64,000 bases of DNA, taken from a virus (taxonomy: Duplodnaviria > Heunggongvirae > Uroviricota > Caudoviricetes). A model generated the notes under the pieces. It saw only the letters and a list, made by a program, of their open reading frames with translations. It did not search any database and had not been told where the DNA came from. Below, one piece after another: positions 4,359 to 64,000 of the stretch. The first letter of the stretch is position 1; every line of letters starts with the position of its first letter. The position numbers and the translations under genes were made by a program. Location of the stretch: positions 69,683 to 133,682 of the IMG/VR virus record IMGVR_UViG_3300007735_000926. The stretch is one strand, 5' to 3'.

Positions 4359-4362
4359 TAAT

Positions 4363-4749: not shown

Positions 4750-4752
4750 CAC

Positions 4753-38248: not shown

Positions 38249-39901
38249 TCAACCCTCGCATGATTTGCATGTGAGGATCGATCTGGACAATTCCTGACTT
38301 GGATTTGATGAACGTTGGTAATACAATGACTTGATGCCCATTTCCCAAGCAAAAATCATTAATTCATTAATTTCCTTCGGCTTCGTCCCGGCAGGAATCA
38401 TCAAATTGAGAGATTGTCCTTGGTCAATATGGGGTTGTCTTTGAGCAGCATGAATTACAACTTCTTTCTGTGAAAGTTCTGCAAATGTTTTGAAAACATC
38501 TTTCTCGTGCTCTGTGAGGAAATCGAGATGTTGGACACTACCACCATGAACCAAAATGCTTTTCCAAATTTCTTTATCATCCTTATCTTTAGATTTCAAC
38601 AATTCTTCAAACTTTGGATTACGGTAAATAAATTGACCTTTCGCGAGATTCTTGACAAAATAATTACTATTGAGCGGTTCGATACTGGGGCTAACTTGTC
38701 CTAAGATAAAGCTGGAACTGGTTGTAGGCGCAATCGCGAGAGTGGTAGTATTACGACGACCATAGCCTTTTAATACTATAGGTTCGCCAAACATTTCAGC
38801 GAGTTCTTTGGTTGCTTTATCAGCACGTTTACGGATTTCGAAAAAGATAGAGATGTTCTCAAAATGAGCATCCATGCTTTCCCATGCAATCATTTTAGAT
38901 TGGAGATAGCTATGATAGCCAAGAACACCCATACCCAATGCTCTGTGGTTCTTGGCGAAATTGTGAGCAGCTTCCATCAAACGAACATTCTTAGTCTTAT
39001 CGATAAATTCTGACATCACGGCATCCAAGAACATAACCAATGTTTCCACTGCGTCCGTTTCTTTAATTTCATCCCACCAAAGCAAATTCAAAGAAGAAAG
39101 GCAACAGACAAACGACTCATCTTTAGTAGATGGTAGAAAAATCTCGGAACAAAGATTACTCGCATTGATTACATATCCCTTGTCTTTATAGACGGCAGGT
39201 GCATTTTTATTCGCATTATCTGTGAAGAAAACATATGGATATCCAGTTTCCGAACGTTTTTTAATCACAGCTGCCCATCGGCGTCTCTTTTCTTTATCGC
39301 CATCTATCATCGATTGCATCCATCCTTCAGGAATCGTGACTCCAATAGACATTTCTTGAATGGAATGACCTTCTGAGCGAATCTTCATAAATTCGTCAAA
39401 GTCTCCATGATCGATTGGTAGATACGCTGCAAAGCTTCCTCTACGTGCGCTACCTTGGCTGATAATTTTAGCCACGTTGTCGAATAATTCCATACATCTA
39501 ACAGCACCTTCAGCGACACCACCAGTGGAAATCTCAGAACCTCGGGGACGAATATCTCCAAAATATCCAGATGTTCCACCGCCAACCTTGGTCATCATCC
39601 CGACTTCAGCTTGTTTGGTCAAAAAATCTTCAACGCTATCACCAATATGAGAATTAAAACAAGAAATTGGATTGCCTCTTTCATTCCCAAAGTTCATCCA
39701 CACAGGTGTAGAGAGGCTATAGAAGCCACGGGACATATAATCAACAAATTTATCGGCAAAACCTTCGATACCGAGAATTTTTTGAGCGGTATTCGCAATT
39801 TCTTGGATTCTGTCGATGGCTGATTGTCCCTTTCGGAGATAACCTTGTTCTAAAAATTTAATTGAATCTTCGTTTAACCAGTAGTATTTTTCTCTTGTCA
39901 T
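38249..39901 (-). CDS. nrdA: Ribonucleotide reductase class I, large subunit
   Basis: STPVWMNFG...ISCF, SNLCSEI, VCCLSSLN, LAIAPT.SSS, DQGQSLNL, KSLYY, C-terminal CKSCEG. Confidence 0.95.
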   Translation of the reverse strand: MTREKYYWLNEDSIKFLEQGYLRKGQSAIDRIQEIANTAQKILGIEGFADKFVDYMSRGFYSLSTPVWMNFGNERGNPISCFNSHIGDSVEDFLTKQAEVGMMTKVGGGTSGYFGDIRPRGSEISTGGVAEGAVRCMELFDNVAKIISQGSARRGSFAAYLPIDHGDFDEFMKIRSEGHSIQEMSIGVTIPEGWMQSMIDGDKEKRRRWAAVIKKRSETGYPYVFFTDNANKNAPAVYKDKGYVINASNLCSEIFLPSTKDESFVCCLSSLNLLWWDEIKETDAVETLVMFLDAVMSEFIDKTKNVRLMEAAHNFAKNHRALGMGVLGYHSYLQSKMIAWESMDAHFENISIFFEIRKRADKATKELAEMFGEPIVLKGYGRRNTTTLAIAPTTSSSFILGQVSPSIEPLNSNYFVKNLAKGQFIYRNPKFEELLKSKDKDDKEIWKSILVHGGSVQHLDFLTEHEKDVFKTFAELSQKEVVIHAAQRQPHIDQGQSLNLMIPAGTKPKEINELMIFAWEMGIKSLYYQRSSNPSQELSRSILTCKSCEG

Positions 39902-39904
39902 ATA

Positions 39905-40879
39905 TTAAAATAAATCGTCTTCGTCGTAGGATTGTGTGTTTTTAGCGTATTCAACAGGTCTGGAATGGAAAAAATCTGTCATGTTTGGGGCAAGCATTTG
40001 TTCATCAAACCAAAAAGTCTCATCCAGAATGCTTGTGTTGGTATCGAATACTTTTGGGAATCCGATACCCACCAAAGATTCATTTATTCTATTTTTGATA
40101 AATTCCTTCAAAATTGGTGCCGACAAACCTTGTTCCTCGATACCGTTGACCATCCAATCAATAATTTTACTTTCTGAAATGAAAGCTTGTTCTGCTTCAT
40201 GGAGAATACGCTCTTCCAATTCTTTGTCAAATAATTCGGGGTGTTCTTCGCGAATCGTATTAATAATTTTCATACCAACCATCGCGTGAATTGCTTCTTC
40301 ATTACGGGTATAACGGACTTGTTGATCGGTATCTTTAAGAACATTCTTGTTCTTGGCAAACCAATTGATTACATAGAATTGGCTGAATAGAGAAACATTT
40401 TCAACAAATAATGTGAAAAGGATCAATGCATAAAGATATTGTTTTTTAGAATCTTTATAAAATCGATGAGTATATTTTTTAAGATATTTCACGCGACCTT
40501 GAATCCATTCGAGTTTGAGATTTTCCTCGAAAATATCTTCCATGTTCAATTCATCCAAAAGACGCTCATATGCATTATTATGGATAACCTCAACATTTGC
40601 CATAACAAAACCAAGATCCGACAATGCTGGGTGAGGAAGATTTTCCCCAAGCTTTGACCAAAATGTTTTAACTGCGACTTCAATTTGACCAATTGCTGAC
40701 AAAGTTCGAACGATGATTTCTCGCTCAACATCACTCAAAACCGTTTTAAATTGGTGATAATCCGCTTTAAAACTGAACTCTTTGTCTGTCCAAAAACCCT
40801 GATGCATGGCTTCGATAAATTTTGTCGTCCATGGATATTTGTTAGGTTTCCTACTAATTTGTTCATCAAAAATACTCAT
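39905..40879 (-). CDS. nrdB: Ribonucleotide reductase class I, small subunit
   Basis: FWT..E, EVIH..AY, VENVSLFSQF, RNEE.IH, DFF..RP.EY. Confidence 0.95.
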   Translation of the reverse strand: MSIFDEQISRKPNKYPWTTKFIEAMHQGFWTDKEFSFKADYHQFKTVLSDVEREIIVRTLSAIGQIEVAVKTFWSKLGENLPHPALSDLGFVMANVEVIHNNAYERLLDELNMEDIFEENLKLEWIQGRVKYLKKYTHRFYKDSKKQYLYALILFTLFVENVSLFSQFYVINWFAKNKNVLKDTDQQVRYTRNEEAIHAMVGMKIINTIREEHPELFDKELEERILHEAEQAFISESKIIDWMVNGIEEQGLSAPILKEFIKNRINESLVGIGFPKVFDTNTSILDETFWFDEQMLAPNMTDFFHSRPVEYAKNTQSYDEDDLF

Positions 40880-40985
40880 AATTGTCTATTACTTACCCCC
40901 AAATTCACCTCATTCATGTTTAAATTTTTTGTCATTCGTTTAGCTAAATATGCCACGAAGCTACAAAAAATCAACCCCTATTTTC

Positions 40986-41630
40986 TCAAATAATTTCGTC
41001 AATTATTCCATATTCAAGACACTCCTGAGCATCCAACCAAATGTCACGTTTCATGAGTTCATCCATCTTTTTCATTGGGACTTTGGTATGTTTTTTATAA
41101 AAATCTTTCAACAATTTCATCAATTTATTGCAAATGACCATCTCATCTTCCATTTCAGAAAATTTACCATAGACACCAGAACTCAATTGATGGATCAACA
41201 GATGTGCATGTTGTCCCATGTATCTCTTGGCTCCAATGCAAGTGATCAAGGTTCCAGCAGAAGCGACATTACCATCCACATAGGTATAGACCTTCGATTT
41301 CAATCTACGGATCGTATCCACGGTAGAAAATGCTGAAAACACGACACCGCCATTAGTGTTGACATGCAAATGGATAACGGGATCAAAATTATCATCAAAT
41401 CCCATGCTTTTGATACTTTGTAATTTATTATCCAATTCAAAAAGAATGCGATTTAATTCCAAAACAGAACCTTCATCAATATCAGAATAAAATAAAATTT
41501 TATTATTTACCACTCTGATACCATTAGCAATCGTGTTCAAATCTTCACTTGGAGATGCTATGATGATATTTGGAAAATTATTAGTATTGGCTTCCGATTC
41601 TTCCTCATTACGATACCCCCATCTTTTCAT
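40986..41630 (-). CDS. clpP: ClpP-like serine protease (start revised to MKRWGY)
   Basis: LHVNTNGG, G.VASAG.LI, LLIHQLSSG, RDIWLDA.ECLEYGIIDEII; TAAATA-N5-ATG. Confidence 0.85.
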   Translation of the reverse strand: MKRWGYRNEEESEANTNNFPNIIIASPSEDLNTIANGIRVVNNKILFYSDIDEGSVLELNRILFELDNKLQSIKSMGFDDNFDPVIHLHVNTNGGVVFSAFSTVDTIRRLKSKVYTYVDGNVASAGTLITCIGAKRYMGQHAHLLIHQLSSGVYGKFSEMEDEMVICNKLMKLLKDFYKKHTKVPMKKMDELMKRDIWLDAQECLEYGIIDEII

Positions 41631-41677
41631 ATTAGTATTTAACCACAAAAGATGGCGTTATCAAATTAAATAATATC

Positions 41678-41986
41678 GTGGACAAAAATTTACAAAACCT
41701 TTATTCTGATTTAATTTTGGAATATCAATCGGGATTCAATCCTCCTCAAAGAGTGCCCAATCAAGTGGTGCCCAAAGAAGCAGGGACTAAATTATCTCAT
41801 AATAAACAGGTAATTGGGATAGCACCACCAATGGTGACTTCCCATGTTTATGGGGAACAAGAAGAAGAACCTTCCGATATTTTAGAAATTATTCAAAATA
41901 TTGAACGCGAATATGAAGGAGATTCGCCTATCAACAATGCAGTGAGATTGGCATTTGGAAAATTGAAACAACAATTGAATAAATAA
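41678..41986 (+). CDS. Hypothetical late protein
   Basis: TAAATA-N5-GTG. Confidence 0.55.
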   Translation: MDKNLQNLYSDLILEYQSGFNPPQRVPNQVVPKEAGTKLSHNKQVIGIAPPMVTSHVYGEQEEEPSDILEIIQNIEREYEGDSPINNAVRLAFGKLKQQLNK

Positions 41987-41993: not shown

Positions 41994-42155
41994 ATGAAAA
42001 AATTAATCACAGTATTGATTGCAACATTTTTATTAAATTCTTGCCAAGTTCCTTTTAAAATAGAAACTCTCAATGGATCATTTGGTAGAAATGCGGATGG
42101 CTCCTTATTTTTAGGATATTCTCCAAAAAAGCCAGTGATTATTGATGGAAAATAA
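41994..42155 (+). CDS. Small lipoprotein (53 aa, not in ORF track; o-spanin-like candidate)
   Basis: MKKLITVLIATFLLNSC: signal peptide with lipobox-like Cys; converges on the amidase gene. Confidence 0.5.
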   Translation: MKKLITVLIATFLLNSCQVPFKIETLNGSFGRNADGSLFLGYSPKKPVIIDGK

Positions 42156-42169
42156 TCACTGGTGATAGA

Positions 42170-42745
42170 TTAGAATCCGCAATATTTGCGAAATTCTTCC
42201 ATAGGGAATGCTGGACCCGGATCAACTTTACGATCAGGTGCAATATCATCATGACCCAAGATGGCGTCCAGATTGTAACGTTGTGTGAGAACTTTACTCA
42301 ATTCTTTACCAGTTGCGATCTGTTCTGGAGTGTATTGTTCCCAATCACAAAGTGGGCCACCATTTTTATGTTTAGCTCTTAAAGGTGGCAATTTGGAATA
42401 ACGTCTAATTAAATTTGTAGAATCTCCACCATTAGCATATTCGATACCAATCGAGCAGGAATTTAATCCTGTATAAGTTTTACCTTCAAAAGTCCATTCT
42501 GATTTACCAGCGTGTCCACACGTAACATTGCAAGGGCGGCATTGATACAATGTCCCGTCTCTATCAATTATAAAATGTGCGCATGCTCCTTTAGCCTCTG
42601 GACTTTTCCAAAATTCAATCGATGACATCGCACTCGCACCACTTGTGAAGTGTTGAATAAGGAATCTGCGAACATACATTTTACTTCCACCTTCCAATGG
42701 AACTCTTTTTGCTGTATCAACCCAATGATCTTCTAAAACTTTCAT
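42170..42745 (-). CDS. N-acetylmuramoyl-L-alanine amidase (Amidase_2) endolysin
   Basis: LIQHFT, AHFIIDRDG, HAGKS, N..SIGIE, GHDDIAP.RKVDPGP.F. Confidence 0.9.
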   Translation of the reverse strand: MKVLEDHWVDTAKRVPLEGGSKMYVRRFLIQHFTSGASAMSSIEFWKSPEAKGACAHFIIDRDGTLYQCRPCNVTCGHAGKSEWTFEGKTYTGLNSCSIGIEYANGGDSTNLIRRYSKLPPLRAKHKNGGPLCDWEQYTPEQIATGKELSKVLTQRYNLDAILGHDDIAPDRKVDPGPAFPMEEFRKYCGF

Positions 42746-49019: not shown

Positions 49020-49244
49020 ATGAAAAAATTCTCCGATTTCTTTGACGAATACTTCAAAAAAGTTAAAAAGACCAATCTCCCTAAGAAAGAAGTATCAAAG
49101 GGAGAAAAGGTTGAGCAAGAACATGTTGCGCCATCCAAGCGCAAATCTAAACAAGGAAAGAAAATCGCAAGAACGATTTCCAAACAGCATGTCGAAGAAG
49201 ATCCCAAGTATTACTCTAAAATGGAGAAATGGCACAAGGATTAA
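49020..49244 (+). CDS. Small late protein, DUF5661-like (start revised to MKKFSDFFDE)
   Basis: I...H..EDP.YYSKM motif; TAAATA-N5-ATG. Confidence 0.5.
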   Translation: MKKFSDFFDEYFKKVKKTNLPKKEVSKGEKVEQEHVAPSKRKSKQGKKIARTISKQHVEEDPKYYSKMEKWHKD

Positions 49245-55031: not shown

Positions 55032-55304
55032 TTAGGCGGGCTTGAATTCAACCATGCCGTGAAGCGTGTCCTTGAAGGTGAACCAATCCCCGTTCGTTTT
55101 GATTTCCCTCGCATCGAACAGCAGGGCCGGATTGCCACCGCTTTCATCTACGAGAGCGAGGTGGTCTTGCACTGGTCCGAAGCAAGGGTTGACTTCAGCC
55201 TTCACGAAGTGGAAGCGTGCGGGATATTCCCGCATCACCCCGTCCACTTCGAAACGGGTGATGAGCGGGATGGAACGAAGGAGTGTGGCGAGCGTGTCGT
55301 TCAT
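55032..55304 (-). CDS. Array ORF, hypothetical (90 aa)
   Basis: Box + TAAACT + 9 nt + ATG; followed by terminator A. Confidence 0.7.
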   Translation of the reverse strand: MNDTLATLLRSIPLITRFEVDGVMREYPARFHFVKAEVNPCFGPVQDHLALVDESGGNPALLFDAREIKTNGDWFTFKDTLHGMVEFKPA

Positions 55305-55334
55305 GTCGTGGTCAGTTTATGCTAGTTTTTTAAA

Positions 55335-55562
55335 TCAGTAAAAGCCTCCGGGATAGCGTTCTGCCAGTTCCTCCCATGCTTTTTCGCATGCCGCTGCCTT
55401 GTCTTCGGCTTCCCTCGCCCACTTGGCGAGGATTGCATGGGCATTGGGAGTGGCCTTCATCCCACGCACGAAGAGGTCAAGGACTTTGTCACAGCTGTGG
55501 CCACAGCTGCCGTTGACAGTGAAATACCCGGCGTGGAAGGTGGTGGTGATGTGGTCGATCAT
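55335..55562 (-). CDS. Array ORF, hypothetical (75 aa)
   Basis: Box + TAGAAT + 11 nt + ATG. Confidence 0.7.
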   Translation of the reverse strand: MIDHITTTFHAGYFTVNGSCGHSCDKVLDLFVRGMKATPNAHAILAKWAREAEDKAAACEKAWEELAERYPGGFY

Positions 55563-55645
55563 GGTGTGCTAGGATTCTACCCTAGTTTTTAAACAGAAAA
55601 AGCCCCCGGCGTCCACCGTTCAGGTGAACACCGGGGGCGATTGAA

Positions 55646-55915
55646 TCAGAAGGTGCAGCAGCCGCAGCAGGGGGCATCCTCGCACCGCCCGTTGCGGTTG
55701 CGGTAGAAAGTCCCGCCGCTTGTCTTGAACACGTCAGAGACGTATCGGGAGCGCCGTGCAGAGGGCGTGGAGGGTGCAGACTCCACAAGGCTGCGGGCTT
55801 CGTCAGCCTTGTCCGCAGGGACTTCCCAACCCTTGCGGACAGAGTTCCAGCGGCCCCCCAGAGCCTTGATCTGTTCCTTGACGGGGTAGGTGTTGCCAGT
55901 AATGAGCGTGGTCAT
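55646..55915 (-). CDS. Array ORF, hypothetical (89 aa; GNTYPVKEQIKALGGRW motif, C-terminal CEDAPCCGCC)
   Basis: Box + CAAAAT + 9 nt + ATG. Confidence 0.75.
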   Translation of the reverse strand: MTTLITGNTYPVKEQIKALGGRWNSVRKGWEVPADKADEARSLVESAPSTPSARRSRYVSDVFKTSGGTFYRNRNGRCEDAPCCGCCTF

Positions 55916-55974
55916 GGTGCAGCTATTTTGGTGTAGTTTTTAAGCGTGTAGGATGCGCTTCCCCCCTTGTTGAA

Positions 55975-56340
55975 TCAAAGCTCGATCACCGTTGGCTCGT
56001 AATAGTAGTCGAGTGAACCGTTGAATTCGAAGCGGGTCCACTTCCCGTTCTCGTTGAGGCGGGTGTTGAGGATGGCGAGGACTTCCACATCACTGTGGGA
56101 TTCTGCCGTTGTGAGGTGGATGATGAAATCCTGCCCACCCTTGGCCTTGTAGCGACCGAAGGCCGGATCTCCAACGTGGTTTTCATCGCCATACCACTCC
56201 CAAATCTGGGCGCGGGTGATGTAGGGATTCAGGATTTCCACCTTGTCGGTTGGAACGATCACACCGTTGATCAAAAATCCCGCGTCGGTGTAAGTTGCGG
56301 TGACTTGCTTTCCTTCGTATCGCACTTGATAGGTCTTCAT
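55975..56340 (-). CDS. Array ORF, hypothetical (121 aa)
   Basis: Box + CAAAAT + 9 nt + ATG. Confidence 0.7.
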   Translation of the reverse strand: MKTYQVRYEGKQVTATYTDAGFLINGVIVPTDKVEILNPYITRAQIWEWYGDENHVGDPAFGRYKAKGGQDFIIHLTTAESHSDVEVLAILNTRLNENGKWTRFEFNGSLDYYYEPTVIEL

Positions 56341-56419
56341 GGCGTAGCTATTTTGCTCTAGTTTTTAAATAGAAAAAGCCCGGTGCTCACCGTTCAGGTG
56401 AACACCGGGCTGATGGCGA

Positions 56420-56761
56420 TCAGCCCTTGAGCTTGGCAAGGGCAATCTCGTTGAGTTGCCGGGAATACTTGGCGATCCGGGGATAGCCCTTGGCACCCTG
56501 TGGAGCGAGCCACGGCTCAATCTGCCAGTCCTGAAGCGTCCCGTGCTTCAGGAAATACTTCGCGGTAATGCTGCCGCGCTTTGCATCCGCGTGTTGGAAC
56601 CCGACATCATTGTCGTGGTTGGTGCGGTTGGCGTCCTTCTCGTCCTCCGTTTGACGCAGGAAGAGAGCGACGAGAGCGCGACCCACGACCTGAGCTTGAC
56701 GCTCGCGGGAGGCATTGAGCATTTCGAGGAGGGACTGCTTGGTGACGATGGTGGTCTTCAT
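56420..56761 (-). CDS. Array ORF, phage hypothetical (113 aa)
   Basis: Box + CAAACT + 9 nt + ATG; ALVAL..RQT.DE......N.VGF...DA motif. Confidence 0.75.
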   Translation of the reverse strand: MKTTIVTKQSLLEMLNASRERQAQVVGRALVALFLRQTEDEKDANRTNHDNDVGFQHADAKRGSITAKYFLKHGTLQDWQIEPWLAPQGAKGYPRIAKYSRQLNEIALAKLKG

Positions 56762-56835
56762 GGCGAGATCAGTTTGCTCTAGTTTTTAAATGAAAAAAAG
56801 CCCCCAGTGCTCAGGCGAACACTGGGGGCGATGAA

Positions 56836-57060
56836 TCACCAACCGAAACGGGGATGAGTGCGAGCTTTCAGAATGCGAAGGCGGCAATGGCGCAGCGCAG
56901 CGATGAGATTGGCCACTGGCATGTCGTAGATGTTTCCGGTTCTCGCGTTTCTCACGTTCAGCCAGAAGTGGATATTGTTGAATATCGTGGCTTTTGCACG
57001 ATACTCAGGAGTCGTTGGGGTGATTTCGATGATCGCGCCCTTGTAATGGATGGTCTTCAT
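56836..57060 (-). CDS. Array ORF, hypothetical (74 aa)
   Basis: Box + CAAAAT + 9 nt + ATG. Confidence 0.7.
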   Translation of the reverse strand: MKTIHYKGAIIEITPTTPEYRAKATIFNNIHFWLNVRNARTGNIYDMPVANLIAALRHCRLRILKARTHPRFGW

Positions 57061-57098
57061 GGTGCTGCGATTTTGGTGTAGTTTTTAACAAAGAGATG

Positions 57099-57131
57099 CC
57101 CCCTCTCCGAACCACCGGAGAGGGGGACTTT
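57099..57131. terminator. Hairpin type B (related copy at 61267-61303)
   Basis: 11-bp stem ccccctctccg/cggagaggggg. Confidence 0.65.
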
Positions 57132-57140
57132 TGCCATGAC

Positions 57141-57422
57141 TTACACCGAGACCTTGATCCACTCGCGGGAGTCGATGGCGACACCGTTGAGCATGGGGGT
57201 GAAATCTTTTTGGTGGAAACGGGCACCCGTGATGCCGTTGACACGCTCCCGAGTGGTGGGAGTGTTCCACCCGGCGAGGGTGGCGTAGATGCCATCCTCA
57301 CGGCGTTCCACGATCTTGTTGCCGTGGAGCCAGACGGCGTTGCCATCGGTGCGGGTGTTGCCAATGGTGCGGGCCTTGTTGGCGTGGAAGGCGGCGGCGA
57401 TGTTCTTGGTGACAGTTCTCAT
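57141..57422 (-). CDS. Array ORF, phage hypothetical (93 aa)
   Basis: Box + CAAAAT + 9 nt + ATG; WLHGNKI...AGW.TPTTRER.N motif. Confidence 0.75.
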   Translation of the reverse strand: MRTVTKNIAAAFHANKARTIGNTRTDGNAVWLHGNKIVERREDGIYATLAGWNTPTTRERVNGITGARFHQKDFTPMLNGVAIDSREWIKVSV

Positions 57423-57449
57423 GGTGCAGCTATTTTGGTGTAGTTTTTA

Positions 57450-57482
57450 AGCGTGTAGGATGCGCTTCCCCCTTACGTGTAG
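57450..57482. repeat. Type C intergenic element agcgtgtaggatgcgcttcccccttacgtgtag (copies at 59445 and 60863; shorter copies at 55943 and 58493)
   Basis: 33-nt identical in three copies, always abutting the 9-bp box. Confidence 0.85.
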
Positions 57483-57489
57483 TTCAGAA

Positions 57490-57765
57490 TTATTCCCGTC
57501 CGAAAAGCGGCTGGATTTCGTAATCCTGCAATTTTCCATTCTGATCGGGCGCTTTGATGACGAAAACTCCCGTCATGATTTCGTGGCATTCCACGGGGTT
57601 GTTGCGGTCGATCAAAAGAAAGTGGTCGCCATCGTTGATCTCCAGATGTAGCTGATCCCCGTGTTCATCGAATTCAGCGGGAAAGGTGAGTTGTTCACCA
57701 TCCACTTTTGCGGCAACGCAATCGTAGAGTTCAGACCAGAGTTTTTCGTATGTGTCGTTCGTCAT
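57490..57765 (-). CDS. Array ORF, acidic hypothetical (91 aa)
   Basis: Box + CAAAAT + 9 nt + ATG. Confidence 0.7.
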   Translation of the reverse strand: MTNDTYEKLWSELYDCVAAKVDGEQLTFPAEFDEHGDQLHLEINDGDHFLLIDRNNPVECHEIMTGVFVIKAPDQNGKLQDYEIQPLFGRE

Positions 57766-57792
57766 GGTGCAGCTATTTTGGTGTAGTTTTTA

Positions 57793-57960
57793 TCAGTGGG
57801 CGAAGGCAGTGAAGATGATTGCAGCGGCGTAAAGCATGGAGAAAAAAGTCACTCCGAAGGTGCCACCCACGATGGCTTCCCAGAGGGAAGCACCACCCCC
57901 GAGGAGGGCGAGTGCAGGAAGCAAAAAGGTCAGGGCCGCGATGAGGATCAGAGGATTCAT
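57793..57960 (-). CDS. Array ORF, 55-aa two-helix membrane peptide (not in ORF track)
   Basis: MNPLILIAALTFLLPALALLGGGASLWEAIVGGTFGVTFFSMLYAAAIIFTAFAH*; lacks its own box but keeps GCACC-ATG. Confidence 0.6.
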   Translation of the reverse strand: MNPLILIAALTFLLPALALLGGGASLWEAIVGGTFGVTFFSMLYAAAIIFTAFAH

Positions 57961-57971
57961 GGTGCAGTGAG

Positions 57972-58097
57972 TCAGGGGTGCTCGAATGCCTTGATTACCA
58001 ACGCGATGAAGATTAGTCCGATCCAGCCTAGTGGGGTGCAGAGGACGATGAGGACTGTGGTGAACAGTCCATCAAGGATTTGAGCAAGGTATTTCAT
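57972..58097 (-). CDS. Array ORF, 41-aa membrane peptide (not in ORF track)
   Basis: MKYLAQILDGLFTTVLIVLCTPLGWIGLIFIALVIKAFEHP*; box + 9 nt. Confidence 0.65.
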   Translation of the reverse strand: MKYLAQILDGLFTTVLIVLCTPLGWIGLIFIALVIKAFEHP

Positions 58098-58121
58098 GGT
58101 GCCGTGATTTTGGTGTAGTTT

Positions 58122-58352
58122 TTAAGCGTGTGAGGTCGATGGGGAACCCATCCATGCTTCAAACATTTCGCGCCGTTTTTTCTCAGCGTCTTCGAGTTTC
58201 AAGAACAAGTATTCGGACTCGGATTTCGAAAATAACATGCCACTGTCAGCTATGTAATCGCCATAGCGAGGACAATAATTCAGATTTACCTCCTCGATAA
58301 TTGGCAAAATGTAGCTCCCAAATCTTTTCGGTATGATGGCGAATCTCTTCAT
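58122..58352 (-). CDS. Array ORF, hypothetical (76 aa)
   Basis: Box + 9 nt; stop TAA is the first 3 nt of the next box. Confidence 0.7.
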   Translation of the reverse strand: MKRFAIIPKRFGSYILPIIEEVNLNYCPRYGDYIADSGMLFSKSESEYLFLKLEDAEKKRREMFEAWMGSPSTSHA

Positions 58353-58393
58353 GGTGCCGTGATTTTGGTGTAGTTTTTACAGATCTCGGTGTG

Positions 58394-58468
58394 TCATTTT
58401 GTCACACCTTGCAGGAAGTCGATGAGATCTTGGATGTCGTGCTCGGTCATGGTGGCGATGTCAGGCAT
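58394..58468 (-). CDS. Array ORF, 24-aa peptide (not in ORF track)
   Basis: MPDIATMTEHDIQDLIDFLQGVTK*; box + 6 nt. Confidence 0.5.
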   Translation of the reverse strand: MPDIATMTEHDIQDLIDFLQGVTK

Positions 58469-58523
58469 GGCACGATTTTGGTGTAGTTTTTAAGCGTGTA
58501 GGATGCGCTTCCCCCTTGTTGAT

Positions 58524-58811
58524 TCAGATCCAACCACAGACCAGCAGCCACGAGGGGCTTCCGTCCTCACCGTAGCCATCAGGCTCAACACGCTTGCCCG
58601 TAGGGGTCAGGCAGATAGCCTCGTATCCCCAGCGTTCCAGCAATGCGTCGGATGGCACCTTGAAGGCCGAAGTGATGCGCACTTGCAACGGTTCCGGGTG
58701 TAGTGGCGAATGCACAAGGCATCGGCTGTCTTTTCCCGGAATGAACGAGACGGGGAGACCCTTTGGGAGTGTGGAACCGTCCTTGAGCTTGATTTCCTTT
58801 TTGGTTTTCAT
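58524..58811 (-). CDS. Array ORF, phage hypothetical (95 aa)
   Basis: Box + 9 nt; C.TP.G..VEPDG....G.PSWL motif. Confidence 0.75.
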   Translation of the reverse strand: MKTKKEIKLKDGSTLPKGLPVSFIPGKDSRCLVHSPLHPEPLQVRITSAFKVPSDALLERWGYEAICLTPTGKRVEPDGYGEDGSPSWLLVCGWI

Positions 58812-58838
58812 GGCGAGAGTATTTTGCCGTAGTTTTTA

Positions 58839-58979
58839 TCAGGCGTATTGCGCTCCGATCAATTCATTTCCCCAGTAAACGGGACGGCGAGCGAAATCCG
58901 AGATGGCGATGGCGGCGTCCCGCGTGACAGCATAGGCGAGAACGCCGCCAGAGAAGGTGAATAGCATGTCGGTCTTCAT
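58839..58979 (-). CDS. Array ORF, 46 aa (not in ORF track)
   Basis: MKTDMLFTFSGGVLAYAVTRDAAIAISDFARRPVYWGNELIGAQYA*; TGA abuts the next box. Confidence 0.6.
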   Translation of the reverse strand: MKTDMLFTFSGGVLAYAVTRDAAIAISDFARRPVYWGNELIGAQYA

Positions 58980-59003
58980 GGTGCTGCGATTTTATTGTAG
59001 TTT

Positions 59004-59417
59004 TTACGAGATTCTGTCAATTTGATCCTCAATCATTTCGATTGGAATCTCTGGCATTTGCTCGCAGATATTATTCAACATGTTTTCACGCCGCCATTCA
59101 TCATCCGCTTGTCCATCATCTGAAAAGTCATTTCGCCAAGGATCAGACATGGAGCAATCATAAGAGCGGTATTCCTGATAAATGATGTCTTTTTGCTTAT
59201 CAGTAAGCTCAATTTCAACAATCGAATCAGGTTCTTGCATAAAAACAAAAGAATCAAAATCTGCGGTATTACCATTATTATCAATTGCAGGCTGCTGCAA
59301 AGCGTGATAGCCTTTGATGCCATAAGCATCCGCTCGCACCATTTTAAGAATCATACCGTCGAAATTGCGGTTGAATGCTAGACCATCAGATGATAAGACT
59401 TTGAAGAAACGGCTCAT
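59004..59417 (-). CDS. Array ORF, acidic hypothetical (137 aa), lower GC than its neighbours
   Basis: Box + TAAAAT + 9 nt; TAA within the next box. Confidence 0.7.
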   Translation of the reverse strand: MSRFFKVLSSDGLAFNRNFDGMILKMVRADAYGIKGYHALQQPAIDNNGNTADFDSFVFMQEPDSIVEIELTDKQKDIIYQEYRSYDCSMSDPWRNDFSDDGQADDEWRRENMLNNICEQMPEIPIEMIEDQIDRIS

Positions 59418-59478
59418 GGTGCTGCGATTTTATTGTAGTTTTTAAGCGTGTAGGATGCGCTTCCCCCTTACGTGTAGA

Positions 59479-59619
59479 TCAGTCGAGATTGAAAGCCCTT
59501 TTGTATTGAGCTTCAGCGACTTGCTTCGACAACCAACTTTGCTGTTGGAAGATTCGAGCGCCATAGATTGGTTTGCGCGCCCGAGTGAACAGTAATGTGA
59601 TCCAATTGATGATCTTCAT
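59479..59619 (-). CDS. Array ORF, 46 aa (not in ORF track)
   Basis: MKIINWITLLFTRARKPIYGARIFQQQSWLSKQVAEAQYKRAFNLD*; box + TAGAAT + 9 nt. Confidence 0.6.
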   Translation of the reverse strand: MKIINWITLLFTRARKPIYGARIFQQQSWLSKQVAEAQYKRAFNLD

Positions 59620-59643
59620 GGTGCTGCAATTCTACTGTAGTTT

Positions 59644-59778
59644 TTATTCGTTTGGAATTGTCCAACGATGGTTGATGAACCCGGTCACTTTATTGAAGTT
59701 GCGGGTGATCTCGTGGATGATGATCATTTCACCACCATCCACGAGAGCGAGATTCCAGAGGAAGAAGCGTTGTCGCAT
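59644..59778 (-). CDS. Array ORF, 44 aa (not in ORF track)
   Basis: MRQRFFLWNLALVDGGEMIIIHEITRNFNKVTGFINHRWTIPNE*; box + 6 nt; TAA within the next box. Confidence 0.6.
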   Translation of the reverse strand: MRQRFFLWNLALVDGGEMIIIHEITRNFNKVTGFINHRWTIPNE

Positions 59779-59799
59779 GTCCTCATTCTACTGTAGTTT

Positions 59800-60270
59800 T
59801 TATTCCTCCTTGTCTTCCTCTTCGTCCTCTTCGTCATCCCAAGGCTCGAATCCCATTTCGTTTTGAATGAAATCCCGGAATGCTTTTCGATCCCCATCGA
59901 TGAACACCCTTTCCTCCTCATCCCCAGCTTCGAAAACGGTCTCCCCGCAGAATTGCATACCTTCCTCGCAATAGCGCAGAGTAAACCCGTCATCAGGAAA
60001 CTGTTCACTCAGCTTGCGAATCGCTTCGATGGGAGGAGACCATGCGGTGTCGAATCCACAGGCACCTTCAGCGATCAATTCGTTGGCAGCTTCGCGCTGA
60101 TCTTCATCGCACAGATCCCACTTTGTGGACCACGCTTCGTTCTGCGCTTCCACAGTGTCGTCACACGGTGCGATCTTCTTGAAAGAAAGACCATGCACGC
60201 GCAGATAATTTACAAGCTCATTGGACATTGGAGAGTCCACCGTCAGTTGGTTTTGGCACCAGTTGGGCAT
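59800..60270 (-). CDS. Array ORF, DUF1281/YubB ferredoxin-like fold protein
   Basis: MPNWC.N.L, WSTKWD, FDTAWSPP...I.KLSEQFP, L.Y.EEGM.FCG. Confidence 0.75.
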   Translation of the reverse strand: MPNWCQNQLTVDSPMSNELVNYLRVHGLSFKKIAPCDDTVEAQNEAWSTKWDLCDEDQREAANELIAEGACGFDTAWSPPIEAIRKLSEQFPDDGFTLRYCEEGMQFCGETVFEAGDEEERVFIDGDRKAFRDFIQNEMGFEPWDDEEDEEEDKEE

Positions 60271-60296
60271 GTCAGTATTTTGGTGTAGTTTTTAAA

Positions 60297-60626
60297 TCAA
60301 ATTTGTTCAATCTTGATCCAGAACGAGTCTCCGATGTTTATGTTCATCTGTTCAAGAAATGTTCGTTCTTCGACACACAACACGAATTCGAGACTTCCGA
60401 ATTTCACATAATTCCTGTCGGAATAAGAAATTCTTTTCCAACCCTTTCGCTTTGGATTGTTGCGACTGAAAAATCCACGAACATCAGACGGCGCTTCATA
60501 AACGGGGATGCCCAGAATTGCAGTTGCGAATTTTCGACAAATGGCAATATCTTTTCCTTTCACATAATAAAAGGCTCCCAACCGCAGGTTCATCAAAAAG
60601 GTCATTCGGCTTTTGTTCGGTGTCAT
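60297..60626 (-). CDS. Array ORF, hypothetical (109 aa)
   Basis: Box + TAGAAT + 9 nt. Confidence 0.7.
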   Translation of the reverse strand: MTPNKSRMTFLMNLRLGAFYYVKGKDIAICRKFATAILGIPVYEAPSDVRGFFSRNNPKRKGWKRISYSDRNYVKFGSLEFVLCVEERTFLEQMNINIGDSFWIKIEQI

Positions 60627-60655
60627 GGTGCTGCAATTCTACTGTAGTTTTTAAA

Positions 60656-60838
60656 TCAAGCGAAGTAGTAGACACCACAGGCTTGAATGAATTTGTCACG
60701 ATCAAACCGTGGGAACTCCTTGGCAAAGGCATCCGCGAAAGTGTTTGCAACGGACAGCTTCTGTGCCCTCAGAGAGGCAGAGAACGATGGCATGGAGTTG
60801 ATGGTGGCGGCGACAAGTTCGAAGTGCTTCTTGGTCAT
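60656..60838 (-). CDS. Array ORF, phage hypothetical (60 aa)
   Basis: MTKKHF..A.........NPRFD..KF..ACG-type motif; box + 6 nt. Confidence 0.7.
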   Translation of the reverse strand: MTKKHFELVAATINSMPSFSASLRAQKLSVANTFADAFAKEFPRFDRDKFIQACGVYYFA

Positions 60839-60896
60839 GGCGTTATTTTGGTGTAGTTTTTAAGCGTGTAGGATGCGCTTCCCCCTTACGTGTAGA

Positions 60897-61109
60897 TCAG
60901 TCGAACAGATTTTCAACGTGGCGAACGATCCAAGGCTGATTGTGCCCCTTCTCGATTGCTGTGAAGATTTCGTGGGTGCCATAGAACGCTCGAACAGTTC
61001 CGGCACTGTTGTCGCGAACGACATTCAAACCAGCTTGTTTCATGGCCTTGACCATACCATCCACATGGTCCTTGGTGAGCAGAAACGACTTGAATTTTGG
61101 TTTGGTCAT
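60897..61109 (-). CDS. Array ORF, 70 aa (start revised to MTKPKF)
   Basis: Box at 61125 + 6 nt defines the ATG at 61109. Confidence 0.7.
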   Translation of the reverse strand: MTKPKFKSFLLTKDHVDGMVKAMKQAGLNVVRDNSAGTVRAFYGTHEIFTAIEKGHNQPWIVRHVENLFD

Positions 61110-61131
61110 GGCGTTATTTTGGTGTAGTTTT

Positions 61132-61236
61132 TTAAAACAGAACGAGATACCAGAGAATGACAGCAATGCCATAGAAAAGTAAACTTCGGGTTCCGACAGC
61201 AATGAGCGATACGATGATGGCGAGTAGGAATTGCAT
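61132..61236 (-). CDS. Array ORF, 34-aa membrane peptide (not in ORF track)
   Basis: MQFLLAIIVSLIAVGTRSLLFYGIAVILWYLVLF*; TAA within the next box. Confidence 0.6.
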   Translation of the reverse strand: MQFLLAIIVSLIAVGTRSLLFYGIAVILWYLVLF

Positions 61237-61317
61237 GCAGCGATTTTGGTGTAGTTTTTAAAATTTGCCTCCCCTCTCCGACCACCAGAGAGAGGAGGGC
61301 TTTACCATGAACAAATT

Positions 61318-61542
61318 TCAGTATTGTTTGAACTCTCCGGTCGCTGTCTGCGCATTGTATCCCGCAGCATATTCAGCGACTTCTTCGGGAGTCAGATCGA
61401 TGATCTTCTCACCCTTGTAGGTTCCATCAGGATACCAATGGGGATCGAAAGCCCGCAGGTAGTAGCTATCGGCACCACCACGGTCGAAGAGAGAGCCATG
61501 ACGTTTGCGGTCGAATTGAGGAAGCGTTGCAGTATCAGACAT
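61318..61542 (-). CDS. Array ORF, phage hypothetical (74 aa)
   Basis: HG..FDRG.ADSYY.R..DPH....E..EY.AGY motif; box + 6 nt. Confidence 0.75.
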   Translation of the reverse strand: MSDTATLPQFDRKRHGSLFDRGGADSYYLRAFDPHWYPDGTYKGEKIIDLTPEEVAEYAAGYNAQTATGEFKQY

Positions 61543-61566
61543 GCCAGTATTTTGGTGTAGTTTTTA

Positions 61567-61722
61567 TCAAGGGAAGTAGAGGATTGGGAAGGAGTATTCC
61601 ACATCAAAATCCGATTGGGAATAAGTCTCAAGAACTTCCAATTCTTGGAGCTTTTCCACCCACTTGCGAATGCGCTCGGGATCGATTCCTTCTTTGAAGA
61701 CCAGTAGAGTAGCGACTTGCAT
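61567..61722 (-). CDS. Array ORF, 51 aa (not in ORF track)
   Basis: MQVATLLVFKEGIDPERIRKWVEKLQELEVLETYSQSDFDVEYSFPILYFP*; TGA abuts the next box. Confidence 0.6.
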   Translation of the reverse strand: MQVATLLVFKEGIDPERIRKWVEKLQELEVLETYSQSDFDVEYSFPILYFP

Positions 61723-61743
61723 GCCAGTATTTTGGTGTAGTTT

Positions 61744-62001
61744 TTATGCGAAGCGGGCCACCACCGTCGAACTTCCCACCACCGAATTTACTTTCAATTC
61801 TTCTTTGAAGAAGCAATCGTTGCGATCAGAATTCCAACCGCTGTAGAGAAACTTGCGCCCGTCATAAGTCAGGACTTTGTTTCGGATCTTTTCCACATCA
61901 TCCCATCCATTAGGAACTGAGAGATACAACCATCCGCGCCCATCGGTGGCAAGACGGTATTCTGCTTTGATTTCCTTCGGATCGATTGTGGCGGTGATCA
62001 T
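61744..62001 (-). CDS. Array ORF, hypothetical (85 aa)
   Basis: Box + TAGAAT + 6 nt; TAA within the next box. Confidence 0.7.
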   Translation of the reverse strand: MITATIDPKEIKAEYRLATDGRGWLYLSVPNGWDDVEKIRNKVLTYDGRKFLYSGWNSDRNDCFFKEELKVNSVVGSSTVVARFA

Positions 62002-62022
62002 GTCGAAATTCTACTGTAGTTT

Positions 62023-62211
62023 TTAAACGAATTCGTATTCTCCCTTTTCGAGAACAATGGCAGGACCATCTTCATCTTCGAAAACAAAGATCTTGCCTTT
62101 CTCTTCCCAATCCGGCAGATTGGTGGCATGAATGAATTCGTAATTCTTTGTATTGTCGAGAACGAAATTGGTTCCCATCAGCGAGTAATTCTCAAGCGGT
62201 CGAACTTGCAT
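62023..62211 (-). CDS. Array ORF, hypothetical (62 aa)
   Basis: Box + 6 nt; TAA within the next box. Confidence 0.7.
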   Translation of the reverse strand: MQVRPLENYSLMGTNFVLDNTKNYEFIHATNLPDWEEKGKIFVFEDEDGPAIVLEKGEYEFV

Positions 62212-62235
62212 GCCAGTATTTTGGTGTAGTTTTTA

Positions 62236-62796
62236 TCAGGAAATTCCCTGCCACAGTTTCACTTCCCAATTCCTGCGGATGACCAGCCCGCGCAATGTCT
62301 TGCCAGCTGCTTTACAATAAAGTGGCAGCAACTTGGGCACACTATCATAATTGCCAGAGTTGAGTCTATTCTTCCCATTGATCAGAGCATCAAGACAATC
62401 CTCATTTGTGTTGTGAGTAAAGCTAACAAGTGCTGCAAGCTGATACTCTGTCAACTTAACCTTAACTTTAGACAGAACCAATTTCTTCGTTTCAATCAAT
62501 TCTTGCTTGAGGATAGACTCTGCTGTGGACATGCTCATACTATTGCCAGCGTATTTACCAGTGTGTCCATATCCAACAGTCAAAACACCAGCAGGACAAC
62601 GATATGGATTGGCACGATATGACTCGAAACTCTTAACTTTCTCTGTCATCTTGTCAGTCCATGCGATCTTATGTTTTGGTGTGACAAGCACAGGATAGCT
62701 TTTCAGATGTTTAACTATCGAAATACTTGGCACTGTCTGCACAGATAACGCGACAATTGCACATGTTAGAGATGCAACGATCATGATTGTTTTCAT
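62236..62796 (-). CDS. GH24 phage lysozyme with N-terminal hydrophobic anchor (start revised to MKTIM)
   Basis: FESYRANPYRCPAGVLTVGYGHT (E-x8-C-x5-T), QLAALVSF..N, AGK.L.GLV.RR..E. Confidence 0.85.
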   Translation of the reverse strand: MKTIMIVASLTCAIVALSVQTVPSISIVKHLKSYPVLVTPKHKIAWTDKMTEKVKSFESYRANPYRCPAGVLTVGYGHTGKYAGNSMSMSTAESILKQELIETKKLVLSKVKVKLTEYQLAALVSFTHNTNEDCLDALINGKNRLNSGNYDSVPKLLPLYCKAAGKTLRGLVIRRNWEVKLWQGIS

Positions 62797-62825
62797 TTGA
62801 ATATGCCACAATTTTGGTGTAGTTT

Positions 62826-63230
62826 TTATTCGCTGTCAACCACCCTATCAAATGGAATCTCGACAAAGTGATCCATCTCTTGCACCATAGCAATCGACTG
62901 ACGATCAGAATCAAATCGATTTATGACAGAGTATCGTCGGATAACCATATCATATTCCGCACAGAAATCATAAAACCTTTTGCTTGTTCCAAACCACTTG
63001 CGCAGTTTGTTCAGTGAACAAAAGCCATAACGCGATGAGTCACAATGATAATCACCCAAGCCATTTTGATACGGGGACTTATGATACGCGTCAGAAAAAC
63101 ATAAGTCTAGTCGAACTCTTACCAGAGAACAAAAATACCACCAGCTATTCGTGTCTTTCGATTTACAACGGTGATTGTAAAAACCGATTTGAGTTTCTTT
63201 GTTTTCAAGGCGATACAAGAACTTCGGCAT
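62826..63230 (-). CDS. Array ORF, hypothetical (134 aa)
   Basis: Box + 6 nt; TAA within the next box. Confidence 0.7.
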   Translation of the reverse strand: MPKFLYRLENKETQIGFYNHRCKSKDTNSWWYFCSLVRVRLDLCFSDAYHKSPYQNGLGDYHCDSSRYGFCSLNKLRKWFGTSKRFYDFCAEYDMVIRRYSVINRFDSDRQSIAMVQEMDHFVEIPFDRVVDSE

Positions 63231-63253
63231 GCCATGATTTTGGTTTAGTTTTT

Positions 63254-63427
63254 TTAGTCTGTAAAGTGAACCCAGACATTCCCATGGTCTGTATTTACAT
63301 GGTAAGTGCCATCCATCAGATCGCGCAACTCATCATTGCGAATTGCAGAAGCCAAAGTATCCAGAACTTCGGCAACGGAATTGTCATTCAGACGATCCTT
63401 TTCCAATTCAATAATGATTTTCTGCAT
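63254..63427 (-). CDS. Array ORF, 57 aa (not in ORF track)
   Basis: MQKIIIELEKDRLNDNSVAEVLDTLASAIRN...WVHFTD*; TAA within the next box. Confidence 0.6.
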   Translation of the reverse strand: MQKIIIELEKDRLNDNSVAEVLDTLASAIRNDELRDLMDGTYHVNTDHGNVWVHFTD

Positions 63428-63449
63428 GCGATGATTTTGGCGTAGTTTT

Positions 63450-63842
63450 TTACATGCAAATTACGCGGAGAGCATTATGCCCATTTTTACTCAATCCATT
63501 TGCATCCCAATTTTTATCATCGTCATGCAAACGCTGGACTTTCCTCCATTCTTCCAGAGTAATATCAGAATACTCATCTTTTACAACATCCGAAATTTTC
63601 AAACCTTCCAAAGCAGGAGCTTCGAAAATTTCATCGATTGCTGTTCCGTGTCCCATATTCAATGTTCCAAATTCAATCTTATGAAAGATTTCCAGATACT
63701 CAGGTTTCAAACACCTGCCGACAGCACACATGCGACCGTCATTCGAAAGATAGCTACACATGCCAGAAGCAGTTGCAGAACGATTTCCCGAGTGATAGTG
63801 ATTGATGGTTTCTTTGACGAGAGAAGTGAATGTGTGTTTCAT
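63450..63842 (-). CDS. Array ORF, phage hypothetical (130 aa)
   Basis: C.YL..DGRMCAVG.C...Q.LHD...W motif; box + 6 nt. Confidence 0.7.
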   Translation of the reverse strand: MKHTFTSLVKETINHYHSGNRSATASGMCSYLSNDGRMCAVGRCLKPEYLEIFHKIEFGTLNMGHGTAIDEIFEAPALEGLKISDVVKDEYSDITLEEWRKVQRLHDDDKNWDANGLSKNGHNALRVICM

Positions 63843-63843
63843 G

Positions 63844-64000
63844 TCAGTATTTTGGTGTAGTTTTTAAAGCGTGTTGTTCTTCAGTCAATTCAATTCCATT
63901 GAGGAACCAACCTGTGCGACCATTTGAATACTCCAGAGCAGGACCATCCTCACGATGCAGCTTGTTGTTGATGCGCCATTCGGTGCTACCATCAGCATGG
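63844..64000 (-). CDS. 3' end of an LHREDGPA-repeat protein (starts beyond the window)
   Basis: HADGSTEWRINNKLHREDGPALEYSNGRTGWFLNG...; frame reads through the box. Confidence 0.65.
   Translation of the reverse strand, partial: HADGSTEWRINNKLHREDGPALEYSNGRTGWFLNGIELTEEQHALKTTPKY

Follow-up and report, generated by a model that had tools for sequence, protein, structure and literature searches.

How does a genome come to be packed with genes whose stop codons coincide with the first bases of one short repeated sequence and whose start codons coincide with its end? This question is raised by an array of small genes in an uncultured tailed phage (Caudoviricetes; IMG/VR record IMGVR_UViG_3300007735_000926), bases 69,683-133,682 of which make up the 64,000-nucleotide (nt) stretch of DNA analyzed here (the window). 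The array lies at window positions 55032-63866 on the minus strand and consists of 29 single-gene cassettes, in which a repeated element (the box) precedes the open reading frame (ORF); it is part of a run of approximately 70-80 such elements, which we interpret as promoters. It has been suggested in an earlier note on this DNA that genes were inserted at the boxes as exact start-to-stop units. We consider it probable that the box is a leaderless, one-per-gene promoter with a built-in TAA, that compaction has driven upstream stop codons against it while it serves as their backstop, and that the cassettes are shuffled by homologous recombination.

The exact 9-mer TAAAAACTA is present in 30 copies in the window, compared with 0.98 expected. 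The minus strand, which is the gene strand of the 55-64 kb region, carries 28 of the 30 copies. Alignment of all copies showed that the 9-mer is the left (5') half of a longer element composed of (T/A)TAAAAACTA, 3 nt, a -10 hexamer (T/C)AnAAT, 6 nt (sometimes 9 nt), and ATG. Genome-wide, the core AAAACTA was found 88 times on the minus and 5 times on the plus strand, nearly always within genome positions 123.8-191.7 kb, and on the minus strand of the 197,682-bp genome the promoters extend over some 70 kb. A pattern scan of other uncultured viral contigs detected the same architecture in over 110 stretches, with hundreds of copies in relatives of this phage. A set of 601 non-redundant boxes was compiled from the family. 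CATG occupies fixed positions 23-26 in this set, and the hexamer-to-ATG distance is exactly 6 nt in 417 boxes and 9 nt in 71. The variable part of the box follows the bacterial -10 consensus (TATAAT, TACAAT, TAGAAT, TAAAAT). At position -1 the base is T or A but never C, while no conservation was observed at positions -6 to -2 or at the -35 site. Classical -35/-10 promoters were considered and rejected, since a scan for them returned 13 sites against 10.1 expected from shuffled controls, which is background.

The geometry of the box is that of a promoter. The predicted transcription start is the canonical seventh nucleotide after the hexamer, with a C just before it, and the copies with a perfect TATAAT stand before transfer RNA (tRNA) clusters. 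Outside the window (approximately 141,400-141,492 of the genome, minus strand), the 5' end of tRNA-Ile(tat), which is followed by tRNA-Leu(caa), lies within 1 nt of the position usually taken by the ATG. Because a tRNA 5' end is found at the ATG position, the box appears to mark an RNA 5' end rather than a translation signal, and this tRNA-Ile would be transcribed with essentially no 5' leader. The purine-rich Shine-Dalgarno core is absent from the sequence between box and ATG, and a Shine-Dalgarno-like tetramer precedes only 9 of the 66 long ORFs of the genome, as would be seen with leaderless genes. Three phages were compared in detail: this phage (A), a 97-kb relative (B; loci L014-L016 and G001), and a third phage (C; locus L129). 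Between orthologous cassettes of A and B the boxes are 86% identical, whereas synonymous sites are only about 49% identical. The ratio of nonsynonymous to synonymous substitutions (dN/dS) was 0.07-0.41 in 20 of 21 orthologue pairs, the exception being a 24-codon ORF, which indicates that the ORFs of the cassettes are real genes. From these observations we infer that the element is an early promoter that places the transcription start on the start codon, predicting leaderless mRNAs without a ribosome-binding site. In boxes of the ...GCACCATG class, the predicted start would fall 3 nt before the ATG and leave a 3-nt leader.

Box variants are homogenized locally and do not track gene orthology. 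Boxes that adjoin each other show a greater resemblance than randomly paired ones (p < 0.0002 genome-wide, p = 0.005 in the window), and in phage B (G001 38,640-41,760) AAAAACTT replaces AAAAACTA in twelve consecutive boxes.

At 7 of the 29 junctions of the array, the TAA of the upstream ORF coincides exactly with bases 1-3 of the next box (62826, 62023, 61744, 59800, 59644, 59004, and 58122). At three more it opens a longer A-run, with one extra A at 63450 and 61132 (TAAAAAACTA) and two at 63254; these copies are not exact 9-mers. The earlier note had counted all ten as fused, which holds to the base for seven of them. Its seven junctions with a TGA 0-2 nt from the box were found again, four with the TGA touching the box (62236, 61567, 58839, and 57793) and three with the TGA 2 nt before it (60656, 60297, and 55335). 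The classes of spacer that it described were likewise recovered, spacers being present at 12 junctions. The positions given there are the low ends of minus-strand ORFs. The spacers are 14-122 nt long: five carry an unstructured element, six a strong hairpin, and one is short (14 nt). A T-run accompanies four of the six hairpins, in one case after a partial copy of the unstructured element, and is missing from the other two; terminators are confined to the 54.9-57.1 kb end of the array. All 12 spacers end in T before the A-run. The remaining 17 of 29 cassettes are compact, as claimed, and their junctions have no room for a stem-loop. The unstructured element is conserved, approximately 30 nt long (...AAGGGGGAAGCGCATCCTACACGCT), ends ...GGGGGAAGCGCATCCTACACGCT, and stands directly upstream of five boxes (60863-60896, 59445-59478, 58493-58523, 57450-57489, and 55943-55974). 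It is also present in phage B and has no Rfam match.

The same arrangement was observed across the family. Stop-to-box distances were assessed by counting frames and positions in a set of 586 non-redundant junctions, drawn from contigs of related phages as well as from this genome. In 188 of them (32%) the first base of the stop is box position 0, and in 146 (25%) it is position 7, on a CTAG or CTAA inside the box. Other positions in the box account for 31, stops 1-10 nt upstream of the box for 105, and spacers longer than 10 nt for only 116. With such numbers at positions 0 and 7 and so few long spacers, the pile-up of stops at the box is not due to chance. In each of the two main frames, about 70% of the ORFs use the first stop that the box offers (188/253 and 146/214). 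The T at position 0 was retained in 318 of the 398 boxes (80%) that do not use it as part of a stop, nearly all others having an A-run one base longer. Since it is kept where it has no role as a stop, the T of the TAA belongs to the box itself. The boxes of the window sub-array are mostly of a CTAC variant without a stop at position 7, and for this reason the ORFs of that frame end here on a TGA 2 nt before the box.

Orthologous junctions in B and further relatives indicate how such ends arise. Within most families the last residue falls in one alignment column, whatever comes after it. A 137-aa (amino acid) protein ending ...DRIS has a fused TAA in this phage and a TGA, 10 nt, and the box in B; a 70-aa protein (cassette U) has a TGA and a spacer in this phage and B and a fused TAA in two other phages. 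Some orthologues are 1-4 aa longer, or run into the box and end ...KN or ...LKTTPKY. Two ORFs read across the entire box and end ...LKTTPKY at a TGA just before the next ATG. Junction length differs by 1-13 nt between orthologues, and spacers are exchangeable: behind one and the same ORF, one phage has the unstructured element and another has a hairpin. The junction changes are small indels and point mutations in place, and would fit deletion pressure that halts at the promoter rather than base-precise insertion. They also fit a box that acts as a backstop, catching ORFs that lose their own stop. Truncation or extension of C-termini onto the box TAA had been proposed as a check: the copy of a 46-aa protein in B runs four codons on to the box TAA, and the copy of a 34-aa protein in B ends ...KN within the box.

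Whole cassettes, moreover, change places. A and B have 22 reciprocal-best cassettes in common (50-95% amino-acid identity), and their order is interrupted by four breaks, such as P-Q to Q-P and X-Y-Z to Z-X...Y; 11 cassettes are unique to A and approximately 14 to B. Long nucleotide matches between A and B begin at or a few bases from one box and finish in the next. The variable part of the promoter usually moves with the downstream ORF, cassettes P, Q, and Z having the same -10 hexamer and discriminator in A as in B. Cassette X bears the box of Z together with the first 8 coding bases of Z, which points to a crossover just inside the gene. Phage C is a mosaic whose gene order differs from both A and B: eight of its cassettes are 93-99% identical to B at the nucleotide level and the next eight 82-96% identical to A, the switch being located at the spacer/box boundary between two cassettes. 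Part of the order of C (58468, 55915, 56340) was found again in a contig of an independent metagenome run, contigs of which also skip single cassettes from box to box. Neighboring cassettes differ in divergence (p = 0.0015 and 3e-5). Contigs of near-identical strains (runs X2 and X3) were considered as variants and rejected, their breaks at boxes being an effect of repeats on assembly. The idea that genes behave as exact box-bounded units is borne out to the extent that three relatives permute, gain, and lose whole cassettes with breakpoints in boxes. Long matches start and end at boxes; the stop contexts vary among orthologues (fused TAA, TGA with 0-2 or 10 nt, spacer).

These observations can be combined as follows. 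The promoter starts with a conserved TAA and finishes at the next ATG, and the shortest junction attainable under compaction would be one in which the upstream stop lies on that TAA. ORFs in the second frame would run 7 nt into the box to CTAG or CTAA where the variant permits, and otherwise end on their own TGA 0-2 nt before the box. An ORF whose own stop is lost would be caught by the box TAA. Promoter and ORF, with an optional terminator or spacer, would form the unit of genome rearrangement. Near-identical promoters of 24-27 nt would recombine homologously, probably via phage machinery of the T4 type, and cassettes would thereby be permuted, deleted, inserted, and exchanged among relatives. 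Because every box begins with TAA and ends at ATG, a crossover within it leaves both neighboring ORFs intact, which makes fused cassettes fully portable; a fused ORF would regain its TAA at any landing place. A RecA/UvsX-like gene is present in the genome. Of the two alternatives that had been offered in the earlier note, strong deletion pressure down to the box is favored by the box-intrinsic T, the second-frame CTAG/CTAA stops, the switches in place, and the loss of most of the box before the ORF at 57793-57960.

Several points weigh against this interpretation. The use of frames is uneven (253/214/119), which is not predicted by pure random compaction without selection against frames lacking an in-box stop. 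The transcription start and the leaderless state are predictions read from geometry. A Sigma70_r2 profile search gave no match, although a divergent gp55-type factor could escape detection, and a MotA_activ search was uninformative as its control matched in no genome. The invariant core is only 9-10 nt and near-identity extends over 24-27 nt, which is short for efficient homologous recombination. Breakpoints are resolved to a box and not to a base, and the differences in divergence could partly reflect selective constraint instead of separate histories. The relatives are metagenome assemblies, and repeats can mislead assemblers; however, the boxes are far shorter than the reads, and one alternative order was found in two data sets.

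Other explanations were weighed against the same evidence. The box could be an RNA processing site or a translation signal on polycistronic RNA, with cleavage before each AUG yielding leaderless mRNAs. A fixed distance between box and ATG suits a ruler-type nuclease as well as a polymerase, and the coincidence with a tRNA 5' end fits processing too. A processing site would nevertheless not be expected to match the bacterial -10 consensus, to place the start at the canonical seventh nucleotide after a hexamer with a C before it, to have its best TATAAT in the copies that head tRNA operons, or to follow terminator hairpins immediately, as in promoter-terminator composites, and we regard this explanation as improbable. 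A different proposal concerns the function of the stops: a ribosome stopping at the box TAA or 7 nt further in, and thus 17-24 nt from the next AUG, could re-initiate by 70S scanning on read-through RNA. Several features would suit such coupling. The stretch between stop and AUG is A/C-rich, unstructured, and free of AUG, and the stop lies within approximately 35 nt of the next ATG in about 80% of the 586 junctions. Read-through is likely where terminators are missing, that is, everywhere except the 54.9-57.1 kb end; no gene shows a Shine-Dalgarno motif; and the promoter-less ORF at 57793-57960 has been kept 9 nt behind the previous stop. The same pile-up of stops, however, is expected from compaction alone, and 12 of 29 junctions tolerate spacers of 14-122 nt. 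Functional placement of the stops is therefore unlikely in our judgment, if less so than a processing site.

The two capture mechanisms put forward earlier, one site-specific and the other through an mRNA/cDNA intermediate, fared worse. If the box were an analogue of attC or attI, used by a dedicated recombinase for the precise insertion of circular ORF cassettes, near-bare ORFs between copies of one repeated element would be expected, as would gain, loss, and permutation of whole cassettes at boxes, and both were observed. The complete 198-kb genome, however, contains no match to a tyrosine integrase (Phage_integrase, PF00589; control matched in 14 of 14 genomes) or to a serine recombinase (Resolvase; control matched in 12 of 14 genomes). 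The box is asymmetric and direction-specific, with no dyad symmetry or inverted-repeat arms. A -10 element stands at a constant distance before the ATG of each cassette, whereas integron cassettes are promoterless, and the junctions of orthologues vary by 1-13 nt. An integron-like capture is thus very unlikely. Retro-capture, in which leaderless mRNAs are reverse-transcribed and the cDNA inserted flush with the ATG, draws its support from the flush ATGs and bare ORFs and from nothing else. A leaderless cDNA would lack its promoter, yet the promoter variant travels with the ORF (P, Q, and Z); transcripts would end at terminators and not at stops, yet most compact cassettes have no terminator; and the profile search of the complete genome found no reverse transcriptase (RVT_1). 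We give this explanation hardly any credence. Homologues of the DUF1281_C protein of the array were considered as a clue to capture and rejected, since distant ones all start MPNWC and vary only in their acidic tails, which is ordinary. A DUF1281_C homologue is also carried by another phage lineage, which uses a different repeated element (L128, a JGI contig of 202,121 bp, positions 751-5035). That element reads TAAACACTGCG.. followed by GATACT or GTAGTCT, 5-6 nt, and ATG, and the upstream TAA forms its first bases. A stop-in-promoter design thus recurs in the L128 lineage with a different promoter sequence.

The compacted promoter array that we favor can be followed cassette by cassette, all on the minus strand and each beginning with a box unless stated otherwise. 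At the high-coordinate end, a 130-aa ORF (63450-63866) ends on the TAA with one extra A; its orthologue in B (B32821) has 141 aa and another tail. The TAA of the next, 57-aa ORF (63254-63451) opens a box with two extra A, and its B orthologue has the same last residue followed by TGA, 2 nt, and the box. A 134-aa ORF (62826-63254), with a TAA that also makes up the opening 3 nt of the next box, is missing from B. The following 186-aa ORF (62236-62828) matched the profile of phage lysozyme (PF00959), and its TGA abuts the next box. In the lysozyme cassette (62797-62828) the flush ATG, which is retained in B, has become ATA, and the start codon used is 8 nt further on; the lysozyme gene would accordingly carry a short leader without a ribosome-binding site. 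Cassettes X (62-aa ORF, 62023-62235) and Y (85-aa ORF, 61744-62025) both have a fused TAA. The box and the first 8 ORF nucleotides of X match cassette Z. In each of the five relatives examined Y also has a fused stop, and these copies stand in three or more different neighborhoods. Cassette Z (51-aa ORF, 61567-61746) ends with a TGA that abuts the next box, and lies upstream of X in both B and C. A 74-aa ORF (61318-61566), followed by TGA and a 57-nt hairpin spacer, is missing from B. Cassette V (34-aa ORF, 61132-61260) ends on the TAA of a box with one extra A, while its B orthologue ends ...KN at a CTAA inside the box. Cassette U (70-aa ORF, 60897-61133) has a TGA and 34 nt of unstructured element, for which C has a hairpin spacer and two other relatives a fused TAA.

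Two ORFs with TGA and 2 nt follow. The first (60 aa, 60656-60862) has acquired a 5-nt insertion in C and reads there through the whole box to TGAcATG; the second (109 aa, 60297-60653) is missing from B and C. The 156-aa DUF1281_C (Api92-like) protein (59800-60294, fused TAA) is missing from B and stands behind another neighbor in C. It is followed by a 44-aa ORF (59644-59802, fused TAA) and a 46-aa ORF (59479-59646) with TGA and 34 nt of unstructured element, a cassette skipped box-to-box in a metagenome relative. The 137-aa ORF (59004-59444) has the fused TAA described above, its B orthologue sharing the last residue. Another 46-aa ORF (58839-59006) has a TGA abutting the box; the B orthologue lacks this TGA and is 4 aa longer, ending at the box TAA. 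A 95-aa ORF (58524-58838) is followed by TGA and the unstructured element, with a hairpin instead in two relatives. The 24-aa ORF (58394-58492, TGA and 14 nt) has a dN/dS of about 1, and its coding status is uncertain. The last codons of a 76-aa ORF with a fused TAA (58122-58379) appear to resemble the end of the unstructured spacer element. A first ORF of 41 aa (57972-58097) and a second of 55 aa (57793-57960) share the next cassette (57793-58124), the TGA of the second abutting the box that follows. Of the box of the second ORF only a 3' remnant of 7 nt (CTGCACC) is left, 9 nt separating this ORF from the previous stop; the box is intact in a metagenome relative.

Spacers prevail toward the end of the array. 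TAA and 40 nt of unstructured element follow a 91-aa ORF (57490-57792), and TAA and a hairpin spacer a 93-aa ORF (57141-57449). A 74-aa ORF (56836-57087), which is skipped box-to-box in a metagenome relative, is followed by TGA and an intrinsic terminator, as is a 113-aa ORF (56420-56788) by TGA and a terminator. Then come a 121-aa ORF (55975-56367) with TGA and the unstructured element, and an 89-aa ORF (55646-55942) with TGA and a terminator; its counterpart in relative L022, which has the same last residue, stops on the TAA that opens the A-run (one extra A). A 75-aa ORF (55335-55591) has TGA and 2 nt. The last cassette (90-aa ORF, 55032-55331) has a TAA and then 122 nt of spacer, with a strong terminator at the end. 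Beyond it (54871-54930) are three box cores of alternating orientation (plus 54871, minus 54901, plus 54922), which form AT-rich inverted repeats without a -10 element or an ATG and are conserved at the end of the array of B (G001, approximately 42,130-42,200).

The source record has direct terminal repeats and is rated complete. It encodes the T4-type proteins gp20 (portal), gp23 (major capsid), and gp15, as well as a ribonucleotide reductase and a CCA-adding/poly(A) polymerase-like enzyme. The capsid protein shares at most 33% identity with that of any cultured phage, the nearest being cyanomyophages. On the basis of the T4-type structural genes and this low identity, the phage can be placed in a distant, uncultured T4-like lineage. 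Metagenome contigs about 90% alike to it came from drinking-water and freshwater sources. Elsewhere in the genome, 32% of neighboring ORFs overlap or are at most 5 nt apart. A Pfam family was assigned to only 2 of the 29 small ORFs of the array (ten families scanned), and an Rfam scan of the array detected no known RNA family except tRNA-related matches at 54.4-54.5 kb. A cluster of 14 tRNAs at 52.2-54.6 kb adjoins the gene of an 815-aa protein (49241-51688, minus strand) with a poly(A) polymerase/CCA-adding head and HD domains. The structural (late) genes on the plus strand (window 1-50000) bear another motif, (C)TAAATAAT, for example before the ORFs starting at 1670, 6293, 17439, and 28618. 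Its TAAATA hexamer begins 11 nt before the ATG in 15 cases, and the late genes may be leaderless too, transcribed from a T4-late-like promoter. The GC content at third codon positions of the cassettes climbs steadily along the array (55032-64683, minus strand): it is about 0.40 at 64 kb and reaches 0.70-0.83 at 55-57 kb, the genome as a whole having 35% GC. The same gradient was observed in B, with up to 58% GC at G001 40-42 kb and a fall to 35% thereafter. Foreign origin is one possibility; another is that the earliest genes are codon-matched to a GC-richer host.

The favored reading explains how dozens of accessory genes, each with its own promoter, can be packed with almost no non-coding DNA. 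It provides exact starts and ends for hundreds of orphan genes, and it carries a warning for annotation, as the promoter encodes such C-terminal residues as ...KN or ...LKTTPKY. If the predicted transcription starts are true, the clade would be a natural system for leaderless translation and for short, portable promoters. A bolder suggestion, which we hold only tentatively and consider rather doubtful, is that the 24-nt element may be stop codon, promoter, start-codon setter, and recombination site at once. An excised unit of box and ORF, possibly a mini-circle, might then re-enter any box of a co-infecting relative and be expressed at once. This would be an integrase-free functional analogue of the integron, driven by homologous recombination, in a large freshwater T4-like clade that expresses most of its genes leaderless, and the fixed distance from stop to start might allow re-initiation.

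The array resembles integron cassettes (intI, attI, attC, Pc) in its near-bare single ORFs, its one-directional order, its repeated boundary element, and the gain, loss, and reordering of cassettes. It differs in that no integrase was found, the repeat is a promoter and not a folded attC, every cassette is predicted to be self-expressed and not dependent on a common Pc promoter, and the junctions lack base precision.

Leaderless genes with a -10 element just before the ORF include lambda cI when transcribed from pRM, genes of Actinobacteria and Deinococcus-Thermus, and those served by the middle and late promoters of Thermus phages. In mycobacteria, leaderless transcripts have a -10 element directly upstream of the ORF (PMC4633059). 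The genes described here share the hexamer 6-7 nt before the ATG and the lack of a ribosome-binding site. They differ in that nearly every early gene of a T4-like phage, and apparently the late genes too, would be leaderless, a state that is predicted here, and in having an extra conserved upstream block and a tandem promoter array. Our literature search found no description of leaderless T4-like early promoters or of stops overlapping promoters.

The closest known system is that of the promoter-early stem-loop (PeSL) cassettes in the hyperplastic regions of the T4-type phages RB49/phi1, T4/PST, and KVP40/nt-1 (Arbiol et al., 2010, PMC2839356; Comeau et al., 2014, PMC4122927). Homologous recombination between these elements has been shown; the authors detected no integrase, and in their description an element begins with the stop codon of the upstream gene (PMC2839356; PMC4122927). 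The present array likewise lies in a variable region of a T4-like genome with small orphan genes and without a dedicated integrase. It undergoes insertions, deletions, and replacements between related phages (A, B, C, and metagenome contigs) with crossovers inside the elements, and some elements pair a terminator hairpin with the promoter. Unlike in PeSL cassettes, the -35 box and the AT-rich UP region are missing, and the conserved (T/A)TAAAAACTA is found instead at about -25 to -16. There is no Shine-Dalgarno motif or 5' leader, the ATG being at the predicted transcription start, and the element measures 24-27 nt, compared with the longer PeSL composite. No more than 6 of the 29 junctions carry a stem-loop, and the conserved motif itself includes the stop codon. 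The system is thus a variant, predicted to be leaderless, of the PeSL cassettes known from T4-type phages, and it extends the idea of promoter-mediated modular shuffling to a distant, uncultured T4-like branch that apparently dispenses with -35 boxes, leaders, and ribosome-binding sites.

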